Of a stretch of DNA of 64,000 bases, positions 24,898-62,756 are shown piece after piece. A model generated the notes under the pieces. The model saw nothing but the letters and a program-made list of their open reading frames with translations, did no database searches and was not told the origin of the DNA. Position numbers and translations under genes: made by a program. The first letter of the stretch is position 1. Each line of letters starts with the position of its first letter. The DNA comes from Escherichia coli (GTDB lineage: Bacteria; Pseudomonadota; Gammaproteobacteria; Enterobacterales; Enterobacteriaceae), in NCBI RefSeq assembly GCF_041248615.1, contig NZ_CP158426.1; one strand, given 5' to 3'.

Positions 24898-25175
24898 GAG
24901 TTAAATATTTTTGCAATAAGAAATATCCCACTTCCGCCATCACTGAATGTTCTGCAAAACGACAGATACGAGTTCTCTCCTGAAACAGCCCTGCGTCCTA
25001 TAAATATGCTTACGTGTGGCAATACATCATGATTATTAATAGATGCAATGAATCATTAGGTAGCAATTGATAGGTCAAAACATATAGGATAATTCTTGTG
25101 TGATCTGTATGTTGTGTAGCCTGGAAATTAGTAAAATTCCTGGAGATAATCAGAGAGGGAATTTCAAATAGTATA

Positions 25176-25840
25176 ATAATTTCCCAAGAAACTATTCGTC
25201 GATTTTAGGAAAAGTCTGCTCAGGTATATCTACCGAGGGATAATGCTGGCTGTAACGCTGGTTAAAATAGATACACAAAATAATCAAGATGTATATTTTA
25301 ATCGACGAAAATAATTACTTCCGGGATTATTGATGCGACTTAAATAACACCATTTAAATGTGATATAAATCACAAATATGGCTGTGAAGAGGGTGCTGTA
25401 GATATAAATAAGAAGTACATGAGTGAATTTTAAATAGGGGAATAGTTTCTCGCTAAACAATTTGTTGGTGATCAATCACATGCGTTCTGGTTTGAGGCAG
25501 ATTGCAGGTGTTGTTACGCATAAAATTCATAGGTGGTATTATAATCAAGTAGTTAACAGTAATAGTAAAAAATAATTTCTTGCGAAATTAGCAGCCCATT
25601 TTGAATAAGTGTGTTCCGGAGTAATCCAGAGCGCATGCTGCTTTACGTCTTTTTCAAGCCATGTTGGTTAAGCAAAAAGAGGTAGAAATAATTTCCTGAG
25701 AAATTAACTCAACATTCTGAAATGGCCAGTTTTCTGAAATTACCAGAAGACCGAATACATTCATGCCTGAAGAATGGATTAGAAGAAACGAGACGGAAAT
25801 AGATCTATTTATCCCTGCGGAAATAATTTCTGATGAAATT
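25176..25840 (+). repeat. Four dispersed copies of the motif ATAATTTC-N4-GAAAYT (palindromic core AATTTC-N4-GAAATT) upstream of kpsM
   Basis: The cores lie at 25178-25193 (one mismatch), 25574-25589, 25690-25705 and 25825-25840. Each is preceded by ATA or AATA. A TTCTGAAAT direct repeat lies at 25716 and 25732. Confidence 0.6.
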
Positions 25841-25908
25841 GTTTTCGGCTATTAAAAAGGTCAAACCGGCTGAGTGAATTTTATCCAGTTACAAACAAGT
25901 ATTACCTC

Positions 25909-25947
25909 CAGTGTATTGGTAGCTGTTAAGCCAGGGGCGGTAGCATA
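25909..25947 (+). promoter_or_regulatory. JUMPStart element with ops site (RfaH recruitment) upstream of kpsM
   Basis: The sequence cagtgtattggtagctgttaagccaggggcggtagcata contains GGCGGTAG at 25936-25943, about 30 nt upstream of the kpsM ATG. Confidence 0.85.
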
Positions 25948-25975: not shown

Positions 25976-26752
25976 ATGGCAAGAAGTGGATTTGAAGTCC
26001 AGAAAGTCACCGTAGAGGCATTATTTCTACGAGAAATACGAACACGCTTTGGTAAGTTCCGTCTGGGATATCTGTGGGCGATTCTCGAACCCTCTGCGCA
26101 TTTGCTGATACTGTTGGGCATTTTTGGTTACATTATGCACCGCACGATGCCAGACATCTCATTCCCGGTGTTTTTACTTAATGGCCTGATTCCCTTTTTT
26201 ATCTTTAGCAGTATCAGCAATCGTTCTGTAGGTGCTATTGAAGCGAATCAGGGGCTGTTTAATTATCGACCAGTAAAACCCATCGATACGATCATTGCGC
26301 GTGCATTGCTTGAGACACTGATTTACGTTGCTGTTTATATATTGCTTATGCTTATCGTCTGGATGGCAGGCGAATATTTCGAAATAACAAACTTTTTACA
26401 ACTTGTGCTCACCTGGAGTCTGCTGATCATTCTTTCATGTGGCGTCGGCTTAATATTCATGGTCGTTGGCAAAACCTTCCCTGAAATGCAAAAGGTCCTG
26501 CCGATACTGCTTAAGCCGCTGTATTTCATCTCCTGCATCATGTTCCCTTTACACTCGATTCCAAAGCAATACTGGTCATATCTACTCTGGAACCCATTAG
26601 TGCATGTCGTAGAGTTAAGCCGCGAGGCAGTTATGCCTGGCTATATCAGCGAAGGCGTGAGTCTGAACTACCTTGCAATGTTCACTCTGGTCACCCTGTT
26701 CATCGGTCTGGCGTTATACCGAACGCGTGAAGAGGCAATGCTGACATCATGA
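25976..26752 (+). CDS. kpsM: Capsule export ABC transporter permease KpsM (region 3)
   Basis: Translation reads MARSGFEVQKVTVEALFLREIRTRFGK..., 258 aa. The longer ORF-track start at 25874 covers the ops element and was rejected. Confidence 0.95.
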   Translation: MARSGFEVQKVTVEALFLREIRTRFGKFRLGYLWAILEPSAHLLILLGIFGYIMHRTMPDISFPVFLLNGLIPFFIFSSISNRSVGAIEANQGLFNYRPVKPIDTIIARALLETLIYVAVYILLMLIVWMAGEYFEITNFLQLVLTWSLLIILSCGVGLIFMVVGKTFPEMQKVLPILLKPLYFISCIMFPLHSIPKQYWSYLLWNPLVHVVELSREAVMPGYISEGVSLNYLAMFTLVTLFIGLALYRTREEAMLTS

Positions 26753-27612: not shown

Positions 27613-30600
27613 ATGAAATCAATATTGTATTATTTAGAGCCACGTACAGAATTAAATGACAAATTATTTCGCTATGCAACACTACGCTCTTATCTACTAC
27701 CTGAAATTGATGGCCTTAGGATAGCTGATAAGAGCCTCGATTTTAAAATGATCGTTTCTCGTACGATTTATAATAAAGCAAAACAAAATAATTTAAAAAT
27801 GGAGGGTATCGATTTTATAATTATTGATGAAGATGTATTTGAAAAGAACTCATATCTGAAGAATATTAATGTTAGTAATGAATTATATCATGGGAATTTA
27901 AATATAAAGGCTAATGAAGAACTAAAATCAATCATATCTGCTTGCCTTCCTGTTGATTATAAACCAGATATTATTATTTCATATGAAAGCCCAGCTCCAT
28001 TTTTTAAAGAGATATTTCCATCATCTTTACTTTTAAACGCTATGTTTGGAATTTTTTCAAGGGCACCATTTCCTGCATATGGGTTATTAGACCCATGTGG
28101 TTTGTATGAATATTCATATCAATATAAATATGCTGATAAAATTCGTGCTGAGGAGATTTCAGAAGAAGAAAAGGAAGTTATAAAATTACTCAGAAGACAA
28201 AGTTCAAGAGCACTTGCTGCTTATCATCCTCTCAAGAAATATATTTCATCATTATATGAAAAATATGATCGACTTGTTGTATTAGCATGTCAAGTGGATA
28301 ACTATTTTTCTTATAATAGTTGTACCAATTATCCATCACAATATGCGATGGTGGAAGATGTTCTTTCTCAAGTTCCATCAAATATTGGTGTTATAGTTAC
28401 AGAACATGGCTATAAAAGACAAATAAGTGACGAGCAAATTGAGTCTTTAAATGAAAAATACAGTAATTTTATATATTTTTCTAAAAAAGATGTATTCACA
28501 CCAAGTCAATTTATTCTTCCTTATGTAGATGGTGCTTTATCAGTCTCGTCATCGATTGGTTATCAGGCTGCTTTATGGCAGATTCCATATTTTGGTCTTG
28601 GAAAATCACAAGTCGATGTACTCTGTTCAAATACATCATTAATGAGCTTCGTTAATGATGTTGAAAAAGGCATAAAGATTGATCGTGATAATATTCTTTA
28701 TGTTTTACTTTCAAAAGTTCACTTATCACATAAAAATGATTTGTTTAATGGAAAATCTTATCTAAATAAGTTGAAGGATTTATTTAATAAGTTTACCTCT
28801 AATTGCGACGAATATGAGTATTTTAACACTAAAAAAAGTATTGATGAAGTTCGAAAAGATATCATCTGTGGCAACAGAGAATGGTTACTGAAAAAAAACT
28901 TTATTGACTCAAAATTAGTTCCTGAAGTAGACCATTTACGTGTTGCAATGTCGCATTCAAAAGCGATCTCTTATGATCTTTTTGATACTCTTGTTGAACG
29001 TGATTTTGTTGAACCTCATGAATTATTTAATCTAATTGAATCCCGTGTACGTAATGAGTTAAACAATAAAAACTTCCCTTTCTATTATGTAAGACGACAA
29101 GCCGAAATTGACTTGCGCAGAGAGACAAGAGGTGAGTTTGAAATTACTCTCGATGAAATTTACGAAAGATTTCCAAGATACTTTGATCTTACTTTAGAAC
29201 AACTAGAGAAGATAAAAAATATAGAAATAGATGCTGAAGTCGAACTCGTTCATCCGAAAAAAGAAATGGTTCGTGAATTTTATTTTTCTCAAATGATTTG
29301 TGAAAGTGTATCTATCATTACAGATATTTATCTTTCTCAGAATGTTATTGAGCGTATTTTACAAAAAGTAAAAATTAGTGGTTACAATAAATTATTGGTT
29401 TCAGCAGAAACTAAAACAAGAAAACATAACGGAACTATTTATCCTGAATATTTGAAATATATAAGAGATAATTTTGATATTAATGCAGGACAGGCTCTTC
29501 ATGTCGGTGATAATAAACAAGCTGATGGTGATATGGCTAAAAAACATGGCATAAAAACATATGTATTTCAAAAAGCGATTGATAATTACAAAAAATCTTT
29601 AATTGCTGATATTTTACGTTCCAGTATTAATCATCCAGGTATTTCGAGTTCTGTTATTAATGGTTTGTTTGCTAACAAATATCACGCAGGACACTGGTTT
29701 AAAATTAACAAGGAATCAATTTTTAATGCTGACGAATATAATTATGGCTATATGGCAATAGGGCCTCTTGTTGTTGGCTTTACTCAGTGGTTGTATCGGC
29801 GGGTTAATAAATTAGGTATCAAAAAATTATATTTCTTATCCCGCGATGGATGGATTCTTAAAAAAACATTCGATTATTTTTATCCTGAATCATCATCTGG
29901 CATCAAGACCGAATACCTGTACAGCTCTCGTCGAACTGCAATGGTAGCATCGTTAAGAAATATTGATGATATTATTGAAGTTGCCTCTCAAAACTTCAAT
30001 GCTAGAAAGCTAAGTGACTTTTTATCTACTCGTTTTGGGCTGGATGTGGATACTGTTAAAAAATCTGTTCTTGAAAAATATAATTACAAGCATGACACTA
30101 TTGTTTCTCCTTATTTTGAATTTGGAAAGCTGATTGGTTTTTTAAAAGATATTCATCATACAATATTGTCTAATGCAAAAAATGAACGTGAAAGCTATAT
30201 CGATTATTTACGAGAAACTGGATTTGAAAATGATTGCTTAAATGGCGGTGCTACTGTTGTTGATATTGGTTACAGTGGTTCCATGCAATATTATTTAAAA
30301 AAAATACTGCAATGCCCTTGTGTGAACGGATTTTATTTTTTAACACATCACCATAGTCGTGATTATTTTTCAAATGATCATTTTGAAGGTTTCTTGCAAA
30401 ATCTTGATGATCATAAGATCGCTTATAGACATGGATTAAATGATCATGTGTTTATTTTTGAAGCAGCATTAAGTTCCCCTGAAGGAAGTCTGATTAAAAT
30501 GGAAGGGAAAGGTCAAGAAAGAGAAATGATTTTTCTCGAGGCAGAAGAAGAGATTGTAAGAAAAAATGCTCTATTAGGAACACATCGTGGCGTAATGGAC

Positions 30601-31122
30601 TTTGTTCATGATATCAAAACTCGTTTTGGTTCTTACTTTAAATACATTGAATTTTCTCCTATTCTTTCTTCTCAACTTATTTTGAATTTTGCGAATAATC
30701 CCAACGGTATAGATGCAGGGATGTTTGCTTCTCATGAAGTCGAAAATGTTTTTGGTGGGGGGTCTGTATGCTTAATTTCGCCTTTACTAGATTGCTATAA
30801 GGACTCTAATGGCACCATTAACCCTAAAATTATCGATGAGTTATTAAAAGCATCTAAATGGAAGAGAGGTGCCAGTGCTTATTATAACTTAGTCAATGGA
30901 ACTCAACCGCGAGTTAATCCTGCTAAAATGCCAGCGCCATCTGTTAACCCAGTTGTTGTGAAGCAAACGCCACAAACTACTTATGCACATCCTTTAAAGA
31001 CAACTACGCAGCGTAAACTTGCTAAGTTAAAAAAAGACCCATATTTATTCTTTAATGATTCCCAAAAACCTCTTTTAAAAAGTTTACGATTGTTCTTCAA
31101 AAATACATCAAAGCTTAATTAA
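27613..31122 (+). CDS. Region 2 giant multidomain protein, putative capsule polymerase (KpsS/KpsC-like Capsule_synth-type domain, HAD-like domain, unassigned C-terminal domain, basic tail)
   Basis: 1169-aa ORF in very AT-rich DNA. Residues around 215-330 align by motif with the KpsS and KpsC of this same window (VLACQVDNYFSY vs VLQVYNDSQI / QVEDDASI; VIVTEHGYK vs VIKHHPMD; ALSVSSSIGYQAALWQIPYFGLG vs VVTINSTAGISALIHNKPLKVMG). HAD motif I (SYDLFDTLVERD) and motif IV (HVGDNKQADGDMAKKHGIKT) are present. Confidence 0.6.
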   Translation: MKSILYYLEPRTELNDKLFRYATLRSYLLPEIDGLRIADKSLDFKMIVSRTIYNKAKQNNLKMEGIDFIIIDEDVFEKNSYLKNINVSNELYHGNLNIKANEELKSIISACLPVDYKPDIIISYESPAPFFKEIFPSSLLLNAMFGIFSRAPFPAYGLLDPCGLYEYSYQYKYADKIRAEEISEEEKEVIKLLRRQSSRALAAYHPLKKYISSLYEKYDRLVVLACQVDNYFSYNSCTNYPSQYAMVEDVLSQVPSNIGVIVTEHGYKRQISDEQIESLNEKYSNFIYFSKKDVFTPSQFILPYVDGALSVSSSIGYQAALWQIPYFGLGKSQVDVLCSNTSLMSFVNDVEKGIKIDRDNILYVLLSKVHLSHKNDLFNGKSYLNKLKDLFNKFTSNCDEYEYFNTKKSIDEVRKDIICGNREWLLKKNFIDSKLVPEVDHLRVAMSHSKAISYDLFDTLVERDFVEPHELFNLIESRVRNELNNKNFPFYYVRRQAEIDLRRETRGEFEITLDEIYERFPRYFDLTLEQLEKIKNIEIDAEVELVHPKKEMVREFYFSQMICESVSIITDIYLSQNVIERILQKVKISGYNKLLVSAETKTRKHNGTIYPEYLKYIRDNFDINAGQALHVGDNKQADGDMAKKHGIKTYVFQKAIDNYKKSLIADILRSSINHPGISSSVINGLFANKYHAGHWFKINKESIFNADEYNYGYMAIGPLVVGFTQWLYRRVNKLGIKKLYFLSRDGWILKKTFDYFYPESSSGIKTEYLYSSRRTAMVASLRNIDDIIEVASQNFNARKLSDFLSTRFGLDVDTVKKSVLEKYNYKHDTIVSPYFEFGKLIGFLKDIHHTILSNAKNERESYIDYLRETGFENDCLNGGATVVDIGYSGSMQYYLKKILQCPCVNGFYFLTHHHSRDYFSNDHFEGFLQNLDDHKIAYRHGLNDHVFIFEAALSSPEGSLIKMEGKGQEREMIFLEAEEEIVRKNALLGTHRGVMDFVHDIKTRFGSYFKYIEFSPILSSQLILNFANNPNGIDAGMFASHEVENVFGGGSVCLISPLLDCYKDSNGTINPKIIDELLKASKWKRGASAYYNLVNGTQPRVNPAKMPAPSVNPVVVKQTPQTTYAHPLKTTTQRKLAKLKKDPYLFFNDSQKPLLKSLRLFFKNTSKLN

Positions 31123-40228: not shown

Positions 40229-40880
40229 ATCAGCTCCTTTGCACGGAAATAATGCCACAGTCACAACAAACCCGAACCCACTATAATTTATTTATGCTAA
40301 ATCAATGGGTTGTAACAAAATTTTTAATGAATATAAAACCATGGTCAGTCCATGCTTATATGCAGGACTTATCACCTTCTTATTAAGTCGCAATGTCTCA
40401 TGGAGGTGCGAAGATGCTGCAATATTACAGGCGAGAAGGGGAACCAAATTTTGCCCACCTATTTAACACACCCCTACATTATGAACAAGGAATTTAGGAT
40501 TTTTATCATTTATTAAAATGTTTCCTACTTGACTATTAAACCAAAAAACAATTTATCAATTGATTATTTCCTTGTAAAAAAAGAACGTATGACCATGTTA
40601 TTAATAAATAAAACACGTAAATAATGGTGATGTTGTTTTGTGATTAACTATTTAAGAGTGGCATAATAAACAAGTTGACAATTTCTATGTAAAGAAGAAG
40701 AAAATAATAAAATTTTAGCGGTGACTATTGAATGATATGATAGTTGTGGTGTTGATTATTTCTGGTAATGAATGCGGAATTAAATCTGGCCGGATTGTAT
40801 TTTTGCTATATCTATTTTTCAGGAGATTATTATTAAATATAAAAATAACAATGGTGATTATCTCCGGTTGACCTGGAGTC
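40229..40880 (-). promoter_or_regulatory. AT-rich kps region 1 promoter region upstream of kpsF
   Basis: This is a very AT-rich noncoding stretch in the position of the described region 1 promoter. The exact -10/-35 elements and regulator sites were not mapped here. Confidence 0.5.
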
Positions 40881-53238: not shown

Positions 53239-54126
53239 TTAAATTCTCAATGTATCGATAACCGCTCGTAGGGCGGGTGACACATTGCGGTGCGGATAAT
53301 AGATATATGAACCCTCCAGGCGTTGGCTGTAGCATTGCAAAACTCTGATTAGCGCCCCCTGTTCTATATCATCAGACACTAATTCCTCCGGAACATAAGC
53401 CAGCCCCAGACCTAGCCTTGCGGCTTTGGCTTCCATATAACTGTCAGCAAAGGCCCATTGTCCCTGAGGCTGATGGGTGATCTTTTTACCGTCCTGATTG
53501 AGTTCCCAGGCATACAGACTGCCGTCGCCGAACTGGTAAGCGATGCAGGGATGACCTACTAAATCGGTGGGGGTTTGTGGAAATCCGTAGCGCTGAAAGT
53601 GCCCGGGCGTGCCGACAACAGCCATCTCCATATCGGGCGAAATGCGCACCGCAACCATACCGCTATCCACTTCCGAGCCCAGACGTATACCGGCATCGAA
53701 GCGCTCAGTAATAATATCGACAAACCGGCTTTCGCTGATGAGCTCCAGCCGAATATCCGGGTATCGTTGTTTAAACACCGCCAGCTTCGGCAGCAGCACT
53801 TTATCAATGGCGTGCTGGCTCGCATTAATTCGGACCGTACCCGATGGTGTATGGCGATAATGGGCCAGCGTGGCAAGCCCCATATCTAAGGCGTCAAATC
53901 CAGATTCGACGTTTCGATAGAGTAACTCGCCGGCATGGGTGAGCGATAACTTGCGCGTGGTGCGTACCAGAAGCTGCACGCCCAGTCGCTCTTCCAGCTC
54001 GCGCACTGCACGGCTAATTCCTGACTGCGCCAGGCCAAGCCTCTGCGCGGCGGCGGTAAAACTCCCTTCTCGCACGACCTGCATAAACAGATAGAGATCG
54101 TTATAGTTTTCCCGTTTCGCCATCAT
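53239..54126 (-). CDS. LysR-family transcriptional regulator
   Basis: 295 aa with an N-terminal wHTH (FMQVVREGSFTAAAQRLGLAQSGISRAVRELEERLG). It is divergent from the hydrolase gene. Confidence 0.9.
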   Translation of the reverse strand: MMAKRENYNDLYLFMQVVREGSFTAAAQRLGLAQSGISRAVRELEERLGVQLLVRTTRKLSLTHAGELLYRNVESGFDALDMGLATLAHYRHTPSGTVRINASQHAIDKVLLPKLAVFKQRYPDIRLELISESRFVDIITERFDAGIRLGSEVDSGMVAVRISPDMEMAVVGTPGHFQRYGFPQTPTDLVGHPCIAYQFGDGSLYAWELNQDGKKITHQPQGQWAFADSYMEAKAARLGLGLAYVPEELVSDDIEQGALIRVLQCYSQRLEGSYIYYPHRNVSPALRAVIDTLRI

Positions 54127-62027: not shown

Positions 62028-62756
62028 CGGTGATTAAGGAATTACTGTTAATGATCTGTTCCTGCAGCTCACCTGATGAGTTTTGGTAGTAATACGTAAA
62101 AGAGTATGCCTCATGTCATTAAAAAGTCTTCCGGAGTGTTGTTTAACCCTGTACCTCTGTTACTCATGTAGTACGTTGCGGAAAGCTACGTTAATTGTAA
62201 TATCTGGTTATGGCGTTATGCCTTCAGTATTAAAAACATCTTTTACCGGAGAAACTGGGAAGTGGAAAGGCTTTCGGGATAACGTCAGGCCATTATGACG
62301 ATATTACGTTAATCACAGTACAAGATAACGAGAGGGTAATGGAATTTTAAACCAGAGTAGTTCCACTGTTGTTCACTGGAAAAAGTGATTTCCCACGCGC
62401 GTTATAAGCTTACTCCAGAGGAGATGGAAGCCTTCAACTCTGCGGTCGATCACCGGCTGGCAGAACTGACCATGAACAAACTTTACGATCGTGTTCCCGC
62501 TTCAGTCTGGAAATATGTTACCTGATAAATGTTTCTGATGAAGTACAGTCGTCACAATGACATCACTTCAGATATTATCTGCGCTGTGATTGACTGTCAC
62601 GTATGCCGTTCTCTGTATGGTTCTGATACCCGGGTGTGGTCCCACTTTCTCTGTGGCGCCCGGGGAGTTGTGAACCTGCACGTCTTCGTGTGATAACGTT
62701 TTCTTCAAAAATTACGCCAGCGCTTCTTCCTGTGTTACAGAACACGAGGAAGAAAC

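Follow-up and report, generated by a model that had tools for sequence, protein, structure and literature searches.

Among the major virulence factors of extraintestinal Escherichia coli are the group 2 capsules (K1, K5, K2 and others), whose expression depends on an unusually long 5' untranslated region (UTR). The JUMPstart/ops element of RfaH-dependent operons (Rfam RF01707), which acts in cis in this leader, is required if transcription is to extend into regions 3 and 2, and represents a conserved RNA/DNA signal located before polysaccharide operons (PMC8960920). Here, we describe a family of six short inverted repeats in the same leader, upstream of kpsM, in a 64,000-nucleotide stretch of E. 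coli DNA (assembly GCF_041248615.1, contig NZ_CP158426.1), which is referred to below as the window. These repeats are very probably selected cis-elements, like JUMPstart/ops, and may operate at the level of either DNA or RNA. They lie outside the JUMPstart/ops model, 65-730 nt upstream of JUMPstart, and are restricted to Escherichia, whereas JUMPstart occurs across the Enterobacterales. No paper was found that prints these repeat sequences, and they are apparently undescribed in a heavily studied virulence locus.

Several other described systems share individual properties with the kpsM repeats. VirB-type ParB homologues relieve H-NS silencing from sites such as virS, in which the two arms are separated by 5 bp. 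The ATTTC/GAAAT arms of the kps repeats, with 4 bp between them, are identical to those of the Noc-binding site (ATTTCCCGGGAAAT) (PMC7383237), and two of the six copies, H0 and Hy (Table 1), carry a GTTTC/GAAAC variant resembling parS (TGTTTCACGTGAAACA). In ParB and Noc sites the central bases (CACGTG or CCCGGG core) determine specificity (PMC7383237), whereas the central 4 bp of the kps repeats vary at about the neutral rate, and the substitution pattern of the kps repeats is strand-asymmetric. The annotation contains no ParB-family gene among the gsp genes upstream or within 24 kb downstream of kpsF; the ParB-like gene ybdM is located elsewhere in the genome, and the ybdM region is not enriched in the motif. 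The likeness to the ParB/Noc/VirB sites is a resemblance and a lead, not membership.

Among the leader RNAs, the ompA 5' hairpin provides an example of a stabilizing, structural stem-loop in a long enterobacterial 5' UTR. Leaders of the ompA type, which act on the fate of the mRNA rather than on the ribosome-binding site, share with the kpsM leader a stem at the very 5' end and a set of internal hairpins; the kpsM leader differs in having six copies of one stem sequence at regular spacing, and any role of it in mRNA stability is putative. RNA thermometers are exemplified by the 5' UTR of css, a capsule locus of Neisseria meningitidis, and by the fourU and ROSE elements. The kps repeats are similar to them in that their predicted hairpins, located in the leader of a thermoregulated capsule operon, are rich in A and U and of marginal stability (-1.5 to -4 kcal/mol at 37 C and about twice as much at 20 C). 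A thermometer that masks the Shine-Dalgarno sequence was rejected, since the element nearest to the kpsM start codon ends 133 nt upstream of the ATG and cannot sequester this site; the thermoregulation of kps is reported to be transcriptional (PMC8960920). Finally, the REP/BIME sequences are also short palindromes that can form hairpins in mRNA and recombine with each other to yield deletions, but the kps repeats are not dispersed, being confined to one leader, are AT-rich rather than GC-rich, and are positioned 5' of genes.

Six evenly spaced copies of one element in the kpsM leader

The sequenced kps locus belongs to a group 2 capsule of E. coli and shows 100% identity to that of strain NRZ14408. 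The intergenic region preceding kpsM is 1,150 bp long, has an A+T content of 64% and contains all of the repeats. A preliminary description of this sequence had reported three perfect copies of the palindrome AATTTC-N4-GAAATT at positions 25574, 25690 and 25825, spaced 116 and 135 bp apart, a fourth copy with one mismatch at 25178, a shared asymmetric extension (ATAATTTC), and TTCTGAAAT direct repeats between the perfect copies. All of these observations are correct: the extension is common to the four copies on the plus strand, which account for 4 of its 9 occurrences in the window, and the direct repeats are located at 25715 and 25732. When one mismatch is allowed, the palindrome has four matches in the entire window as compared with 0.30 expected from shuffled sequence. 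Furthermore, 20,000 dinucleotide shuffles of the intergenic region contained on average 0.00055 perfect copies and 0.017 copies with at most one mismatch, and none of them reached the observed three perfect or four near-perfect copies.

The reported palindrome represents the core of a wider 22-nt element with the consensus AATAATTTC-N4-GAAATTATT. With up to three mismatches, the full element has five matches in the window, all in the kpsM leader, against 0.04 expected, which adds a copy at 25310; a sixth, weaker copy with four mismatches is found at 25441, on the same period as the others and with a similar evolutionary pattern. The six copies, named H0, Hx, Hy, H1, H2 and H3 in their order along the leader (Table 1), have start-to-start spacings of 135, 131, 130, 116 and 135 bp, with the start of the H3 core being used for the last of them; this evenness has P ~2e-5 under random placement, a value that is affected by the choice of Hy partly by its position. 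All six copies share one orientation, and in each of them the conserved flank (AAT) is present on the 5' side alone. The core motif was found neither elsewhere in the window nor outside the kpsM leader in 766 kb of related Escherichia loci. The repeat family is real and statistically robust.

Table 1. Repeats and other features of the kpsM leader and its surroundings (window coordinates)
Feature	Position	Strand	Description
yghD (gspM)	ends 24825		Upstream neighbor of the kpsM intergenic region
Probable region 3 (PR3) transcription start	25119..25121	+	Mapped by homology from K5
5'-terminal partner	25122..25130	+	UGGAAAUUA; predicted to pair with UAAUUUCCA (25177-25185, left arm of H0); RNAalifold helix
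H0	25175..25196	+	AATAATTTC-CCAA-GAAACTATT; 1 mismatch to the 22-nt consensus
Hx	25310..25331	+	AATAATTAC-TTCC-GGGATTATT; 3 mismatches; RNAalifold hairpin; hypervariable spacer, conserved arms
Hy	25441..25462	+	AATAGTTTC-TCGC-TAAACAATT; 4 mismatches, the weakest copy; left arm invariant, highest spacer diversity
H1	25571..25592	+	AATAATTTC-TTGC-GAAATTAGC; perfect 7-bp arms TAATTTC/GAAATTA
116-bp unit	25571..25686	+	H1 and its following spacer; precisely missing from the common short leader, with the junction in shared AAATAATTTC
H2	25687..25708	+	AATAATTTC-CTGA-GAAATTAAC; perfect 7-bp arms
Hz	25729..25751	+	Separate predicted hairpin GUUUUCUG-AAAUUAC-CAGAAGAC; contains the second TTCTGAAAT; RNAalifold
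H3	25818..25847	+	Core AATAATTTC-TGAT-GAAATTGTT (25822-25843), extending to a predicted 13-bp stem-loop
JUMPstart/ops	25909..25947	+	Rfam RF01707, 53.6 bits, E = 9e-11; outside the repeat family
kpsM	25976..26752	+	Coding sequence; translation intact in all alleles compared

The preliminary description had also connected the family with half-sites upstream of kpsF. We dropped this connection: the best matches to the full element in that region have 5 mismatches, and 16-mers with 3 mismatches occur there at the chance rate. A motif shared with the kpsF promoter region was likewise rejected, as nothing there is better than 5 mismatches of 18. The kpsF upstream region contains a perfect 10-bp palindrome of its own, ATCAATTGAT, at 40555-40564 on the minus strand within GGAAATAATCAATTGATAAATTG. 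It is unrelated to the kpsM repeats and, by arithmetic from the published PR1-1 start, lies inside the region of the H-NS II/SlyA footprint.

An Rfam scan returned JUMPstart alone at E <= 1, and no Rfam family covers the repeats of the kpsM leader. This leader was found in 1,722 of 5,426 complete E. coli genomes, at a median of one place per genome, and also in E. ruysiae, E. whittamii and Escherichia sp. E1V33. The motif is absent from 50 kpsM loci of other genera (Pantoea, Rahnella, Kluyvera, Yersinia, Citrobacter and others), which have no repeated palindrome either; JUMPstart/ops (~40 nt) is the sole part of the leader that can be aligned outside Escherichia. Conservation beyond Escherichia was rejected on the basis of 53 kpsM loci of other Enterobacterales, in which ~40 nt of JUMPstart/ops are retained and neither the motif nor a comparable repeated palindrome is present. 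The repeat array is therefore specific to Escherichia.

Palindromes of a different kind occur 80-135 nt upstream of ops in other genera, genus by genus. For example, TGCTGAA-N3-TTCAGCA is present in Pantoea and Mixta (loci L013-L016, at ~-140 to -146 from the kpsM ATG), ACATCA-N6-TGATGT in Pseudocitrobacter, Superficieibacter, Kluyvera georgiana and Enterobacteriaceae bacterium G50 (L036/L038/L039/L049/L057, ~-161 to -173), and ACACATC-N3-GATGTGT in Rahnella (L032/L033/L054, ~-118 to -121). These palindromes are placed much like H3 of Escherichia and may represent a positionally conserved hairpin before JUMPstart.

Position of the repeats relative to the transcription start

The start site of the region 3 promoter (PR3) has been published at 741 bp upstream of kpsM in K5 (PMC8960920). 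Compared with the K5 strain Nissle 1917, the leader studied here has 116 additional nt, and therefore the published distance of 741 nt maps to ~25121 in the window. In the Nissle 1917 sequence (L063, kpsM ATG at 1292), the published start corresponds to position 551, which aligns with window position ~25121, on the assumption that the mapped K5 clone has a leader of the Nissle type. A -10-like hexamer TATGTT (TATTTT in most strains) is located at 25108-25113 with no -35 element, and PR3 was published as a promoter without a -35 element (PMC8960920).

The preliminary description had placed the copy at 25178 just upstream of the promoter, which is probably wrong, as the homologous start at ~25121 puts every copy in the 5' UTR. 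We infer that all six elements are transcribed. By homology with K5, they would be situated 55 to ~720 nt downstream of the probable start, within an untranslated leader of kpsMT of roughly 740-860 nt. A predicted stem at the 5' end of the transcript, described below, would begin at +2 and lends some independent support to a start at ~25121.

Constrained arms and neutral spacers

Conservation was analyzed in an alignment of 21 genome-derived leaders (A3), which was extended with 88 metagenome contigs carrying the conserved-leader pattern to give 68 distinct leaders. Among the 21 genomes, the 4-nt spacers have a nucleotide diversity of 0.292, with 21 of their 24 columns variable. The value is 0.035-0.056 for the arm cores and 0.024 for the 5' flank, compared with 0.094 for the remaining leader. 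In a matched set of strains, diversity equals 0.229 at the fourfold-degenerate sites of kpsM, 0.055 in the arms and 0.345 in the spacers, i.e., the arms evolve approximately four times more slowly than fourfold-degenerate sites and the spacers at about the neutral rate. The spacers are effectively neutral, because their diversity is close to the fourfold-degenerate value, while the leader is moderately and the arms are strongly constrained. Two further sources of spacer diversity were rejected. Hypermutation is not required given the closeness of these two values, for which neutrality is enough, and inversion of the loop (flip-flop) does not fit the variants seen within single elements, none of which is the reverse complement of another. 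A leader peptide or other coding constraint was rejected as well, since the open reading frames in the leader are scattered and have 20-37 codons, and a coding sequence would not be compatible with 4-nt spacers that evolve neutrally.

The most divergent allele, designated here as the JJ1887 type and present in 51 genomes, retains 90% identity to the window in the arm cores; identity is down to 74% in the background and to 37.5% in the spacers (Fisher P = 0.002 and 0.0002 for the comparisons of these classes). It preserves perfect palindromes at H0, H1 and H3, and a 10-nt insertion breaks H2. Thus, the sites proposed in the preliminary description are kept across leaders, and are kept better than the rest of the conserved leader. 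Purifying selection acts on the arms only, and this conservation reflects a genuine constraint related to function.

Natural variation in copy number

Approximately 70% of the leaders lack precisely the 116 bp between the start of H1 and the start of H2, and hence lack H1. This short form was found in 41 of 60 evenly ranked genomes and in 53 of 72 metagenome leaders (53 short versus 19 long), and the leader of the K5 strain Nissle 1917 belongs to it. In strain THO-015, the 381 bp between Hy and H3 are missing, with Hy as the left end-point of the deletion. All of the other Escherichia species (E. ruysiae, E. whittamii and Escherichia sp. E1V33) carry the long form, as does the divergent JJ1887 allele; given this distribution, deletion between direct repeats is the simplest origin of the short forms. 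As DNA, the repeats would then serve as deletion end-points that generate the natural long, short and very short leaders. Natural strains carry six, five or two copies, and no single copy is essential.

These observations bear on the possibility that the repeats are a non-functional relic of an old ~130-bp tandem amplification or of a small palindromic family, whose arms have been kept alike by template switching or gene conversion. Such an origin would account for the regular spacing, the strain-to-strain changes in copy number through precise deletions at the repeats and the dispensability of individual copies. It is very unlikely in light of several other properties of the family: the sequences between the elements share no detectable similarity; the family is not dispersed, having a median of one place per genome and no copies elsewhere in the 766 kb of Escherichia DNA; the fourfold slower evolution of the arms relative to neutral sites holds across species-level divergence; and template switching makes the two arms of a palindrome complementary, but produces neither six copies of the same sequence nor arms that do not change. 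An origin by tandem duplication was rejected, as the six ~130-bp units and the element-masked spacers align no better than shuffles, apart from one 13-nt repeat. This exact direct repeat (TGAGTGAATTTTA), which occurs at 25420-25432 and 25871-25883, 451 bp apart, is the sole significant similarity between the inter-element sequences.

Pairing potential of the sense strand

In the 68 distinct leaders, Hx, Hy, H1, H2 and H3 have accumulated 12 distinct arm substitutions, 10 of which keep or improve the pairing of the sense strand. Counting from positions within the left (L) and right (R) arms, the pairing-keeping changes are R3 G/A opposite U, L7 U>C opposite G and L5 A>G in Hx; R2 A/G, R5 C>U opposite G and R4 A>G in Hy; R2 A>G in H1; L9 C>U and R2 A>G in H2; and L4 A>G in H3. 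The two pair-breaking changes are R1 G>A in Hx and G/U opposite U in the outer pair of H3. Background substitutions comprise 34% A>G or C>U changes, 28% mirror transitions and 38% transversions. Relative to this 34% background fraction, at least 10 pairing-preserving changes out of 12 have a binomial P ~7e-4, a value that is derived from about a dozen one-sided substitutions, counted after the fact and not all independent. A stricter, symmetric comparison is provided by the A:T pairs of the five downstream copies, in which A>G occurred seven times and T>C zero times (P ~0.02). Across genomes, paired cells amount to 100% in H1 (in the 11 of 21 genomes having H1), 100% in H2 (20 genomes, in which the arm changes of H2 are C>U and A>G alone) and 95% in H3, and the one-sided changes in this comparison are all compatible with G-U pairs.

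H0 behaves differently from the remaining copies. Outside the JJ1887 type, every strain carries an A-C mismatch in the stem of H0 itself, and the left arm of H0 pairs better with the 5'-terminal partner listed in Table 1. The resulting 5' stem is paired at 9 of 9 positions in 50 of the 68 distinct leaders, and a compensatory change is seen in the JJ1887 type: A>G at 25130 is accompanied by U>C at 25177, so that all nine pairs are kept. The separate hairpin Hz shows a coordinated change of another kind, since JJ1887-type leaders have an extra C in its 5' arm and an extra G in its 3' arm, which yields one more C-G pair. The structure predicted independently by RNAalifold contains Hx, H2, H3, Hz and the 5' stem.

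The predicted stabilities of the hairpins are unequal. With the pairing span limited to at most 60 nt, the core pair probabilities are 0.94 for H1, 0.86 for H2, 0.94 for H3 and 0.56 for Hx. H3 folds into a 13-16-bp stem of -10 to -14 kcal/mol at 37 C in every allele tested, including the JJ1887 type and the variants of the T-run at 25838-25847 just 3' of its core (TTGTTTT, TTGTTTG, T6, T7, T8 and T9), and retains a pairing probability of 1.0 in the fold of the full leader. The AU-rich stems of H1 and H2 have 7 bp and fold at -2.4 to -4.2 kcal/mol at 37 C and approximately -5 to -7 kcal/mol at 20 C. An intrinsic terminator or attenuator was rejected: a search for terminator-like sites found none, and the T-run 3' of the H3 core becomes part of the longer stem. 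In addition, the right arm of H0 (GAAACUAUUC, 25188-25197) is perfectly complementary to the left arm of Hy (GAAUAGUUUC, 25440-25449), including the base of each that deviates from the consensus (C with G, replaced by U-G in the JJ1887 type); this complementarity may reflect a long-range pairing or a trace of common origin.

Protein-binding explanations for the repeats

The combination of perfect 16-18-bp palindromes, invariant arms and a free 4-bp spacer is the classic signature of an operator, and the preliminary description had called the sites operator-like. According to this explanation, a dimeric helix-turn-helix protein binds double-stranded TAATTTC-N4-GAAATTA at several sites of the leader and acts as a roadblock, as a looping anchor or as an anti-silencer against H-NS. 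Candidate proteins are the LysR-type YbdO/CitR, an AutA/AutR-type LuxR protein, a ParB/Noc/VirB-like protein or another factor. Several findings are in line with such an array: the conservation has two-fold symmetry (compare the arms and spacers above), all copies have one arm sequence, and the copies are evenly spaced by ~130 bp. The 300 bp preceding kpsM, with H2 and H3 among them, are shifted by purified YbdO and show a 241-fold enrichment of this protein in chromatin immunoprecipitation (ChIP) (PMC9141747). The arms and their spacing equal the Noc site ATTTC-CCGG-GAAAT and resemble parS, GTTTC-ACGT-GAAAC (PMC7383237). Moreover, PR3 is silenced by H-NS, and several of its regulators (MprA, LrhA) have no mapped site (PMC8960920).

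Nevertheless, we regard an operator array as a possible but doubtful alternative. A symmetric dimer should tolerate mirror-image changes equally, which is contrary to the seven A>G versus zero T>C changes, and the AAT flank is conserved on one side alone. The sites are found at ~+55 to +720 from the probable start. The CitR-autoregulated region upstream of citR/ybdO contains no such motif, and the recognition motif of YbdO/CitR was rejected as an identity of the repeats, because the K-12 citR-ybdN and citR-dsbG intergenic regions lack a related palindrome. As for ParB-like proteins, the central bases that set specificity in ParB and Noc sites are neutral here, and no gene of this kind is encoded in the window. 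A full site is missing from PR1, a promoter whose regulation is shared with PR3.

Another protein-based explanation regards the repeats as nucleation or bridging sites of H-NS, together with SlyA or Hha, in which phased AT-tracts with TpA steps would seed a silencing filament at 20 C and no dedicated regulator would be involved. H-NS footprints have been reported on both sides of the PR3 start, the downstream site being essential for repression at 20 C (PMC8960920), and the downstream footprint, from +141 to +219, covers Hx if transcription starts at ~25121. The A+T content of the region (64%), the regular spacing and the presence of an Hha/YmoA-family gene in an adjacent island are also compatible with it. 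We consider this explanation quite unlikely, since a loose recognition of groove shape would neither fix 12-18 specific bases while the middle drifts neutrally nor impose a substitution pattern compatible with G-U pairs. Besides, Hx is the only copy in the published footprint, H1, H2 and H3 being located at ~+450 to +720, beyond its downstream end, and the equally AT-rich PR1 does not have the motif.

The Hha/YmoA-family gene, encoding a nucleoid-associated regulator, is located at ~62376-62525 (958376-958525 in the record) in a remnant of a CP4-like island, ~22 kb past kpsF, and a gene for a LysR-family regulator is found at ~53239-54123. Either of these genes could influence H-NS-dependent silencing at the kps locus.

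Stem-loops in the leader RNA as the favored explanation

We favor RNA stem-loops over a double-stranded operator array, while putting the chance that the repeats act as sense-strand stem-loops in the leader RNA at about even. Of the two readings offered by the preliminary description, weak RNA hairpins are the better supported one. The label of operator-like sites is less supported and is not established, because the substitutions are strand-asymmetric and keep G-U pairs, the flank is one-sided, the sites lie downstream of the probable start, and the neighboring helices show compensatory changes. We infer that the structured molecule is RNA and not single-stranded DNA; a DNA hairpin of the non-template strand may be compatible too, as G-T wobbles form in single-stranded DNA.

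According to the proposed mechanism, the six-member family AAUAAUUUC-N4-GAAAUUAUU, with members ~130 nt apart in the 5' leader of kpsMT, would constitute a set of conserved cis-acting stem-loops. H3 would be a stable 13-16-bp hairpin in every allele, whereas H1, H2 and Hx would be short AU-rich tetraloop hairpins that form locally during transcription, and the left arm of H0 would instead pair with the very beginning of the transcript to close a stem. In combination with the other conserved helices (Hz and the 5' stem), the repeats would give the leader a defined fold, which may set the share of transcripts that survive or elongate as far as ops, where RfaH loads. A role of this kind in transcript survival or elongation to ops and RfaH, and consequently in the level of capsule mRNA, is suggested by the published view of the UTR, which has been described as "moderating" transcription and as having a part in temperature control (PMC8960920).

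Several observations weigh against RNA stem-loops, in addition to the small and one-sided set of substitutions considered above. No base pair within the six elements has undergone a double-sided compensatory change, and the changes in H0 are split evenly, three of them preserving and three breaking a pair. When the full leader is folded to equilibrium, the probabilities of H1 and H2 fall to ~0.1, as they pair with each other, and H0 and Hy have values near 0; thermodynamic z-scores are unremarkable, and the 5' stem-loop does not exceed shuffled sequence in stability (z = 0.2). Around 70% of leaders have no H1, and H2 is broken in the JJ1887 type. The stem sequence is the same in all copies; structure alone does not require this identity, which points to sequence-specific recognition of RNA or DNA, and the even spacing of ~130 bp has no obvious rationale at the RNA level. 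The 300-bp fragment with H2 and H3 is bound by purified YbdO and ChIP-enriched (PMC9141747), Hx falls in the published H-NS footprint (PMC8960920) if the start is at ~25121, and this start site was mapped by homology.

A more far-reaching version, which we consider rather unlikely, would combine these features into a dedicated multi-site platform of six stem-loops with identical sequence. The platform might be an RNA thermosensor or processivity switch, in which temperature decides whether RNA polymerase reaches ops and RfaH, or it might provide loading sites for a sequence-specific binder that counters H-NS and recognizes either the RNA or, in the manner of ParB, Noc and VirB, the DNA.

Other features of the leader and the locus

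The leader contains a perfect CRP-consensus core TGTGA-N6-TCACA (aaaTGTGAtataaaTCACAaat) at 25359-25374, ~245 nt downstream of the probable PR3 start. Its arms are invariant in 21 of 21 genomes and its middle bases are variable. Read as TGTGAT-N4-ATCACA (25358-25373), this sequence is the other perfect 6-N4-6 palindrome of the leader and shares its tetraloop geometry with the repeats; it may represent a CRP site or a further hairpin of the leader. At 25540-25555, a consensus TATAAT (25540-25545) overlaps the IHF-consensus-like sequence AATCAAGTAGTTA (25543-25555), and the whole block TATAATCAAGTAGTTAA is nearly invariant across strains; no role of IHF is established at PR3 (PMC8960920). Directly 3' of Hx, at 25331-25344, there is a sequence similar to FNR half-sites, TTGAT-GCGA-CTTAA, and the right arm of Hx itself, GATTATT, is Fur-box-like. 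Overlapping Fur and FNR sites have been reported at PR3, without coordinates (PMC8960920).

Downstream of kpsM, the gene order is kpsT, the strain-specific region 2 and the convergent kpsSCUDEF genes. Region 2 starts with an open reading frame of 1,169 amino acids (27613-31122) annotated as "hypothetical protein". The kpsM leader allele of the window is matched at >=99% identity by 15 of the 5,426 genomes, and the K type may be uncommon.

Implications for capsule expression

The repeats point to discrete cis-elements within the long UTR of the group 2 capsule operon that are strongly selected and small enough to be mutated one at a time. They also call for caution in reading the published binding assays, as the "PR3" fragments used in them contain these elements. 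If a specific binder of the repeats exists, it would be a new regulator of capsule expression. If the platform reading is true, the repeats would supply the cis-element that has been lacking to explain why capsule thermoregulation requires the 741-nt UTR, as has long been known.

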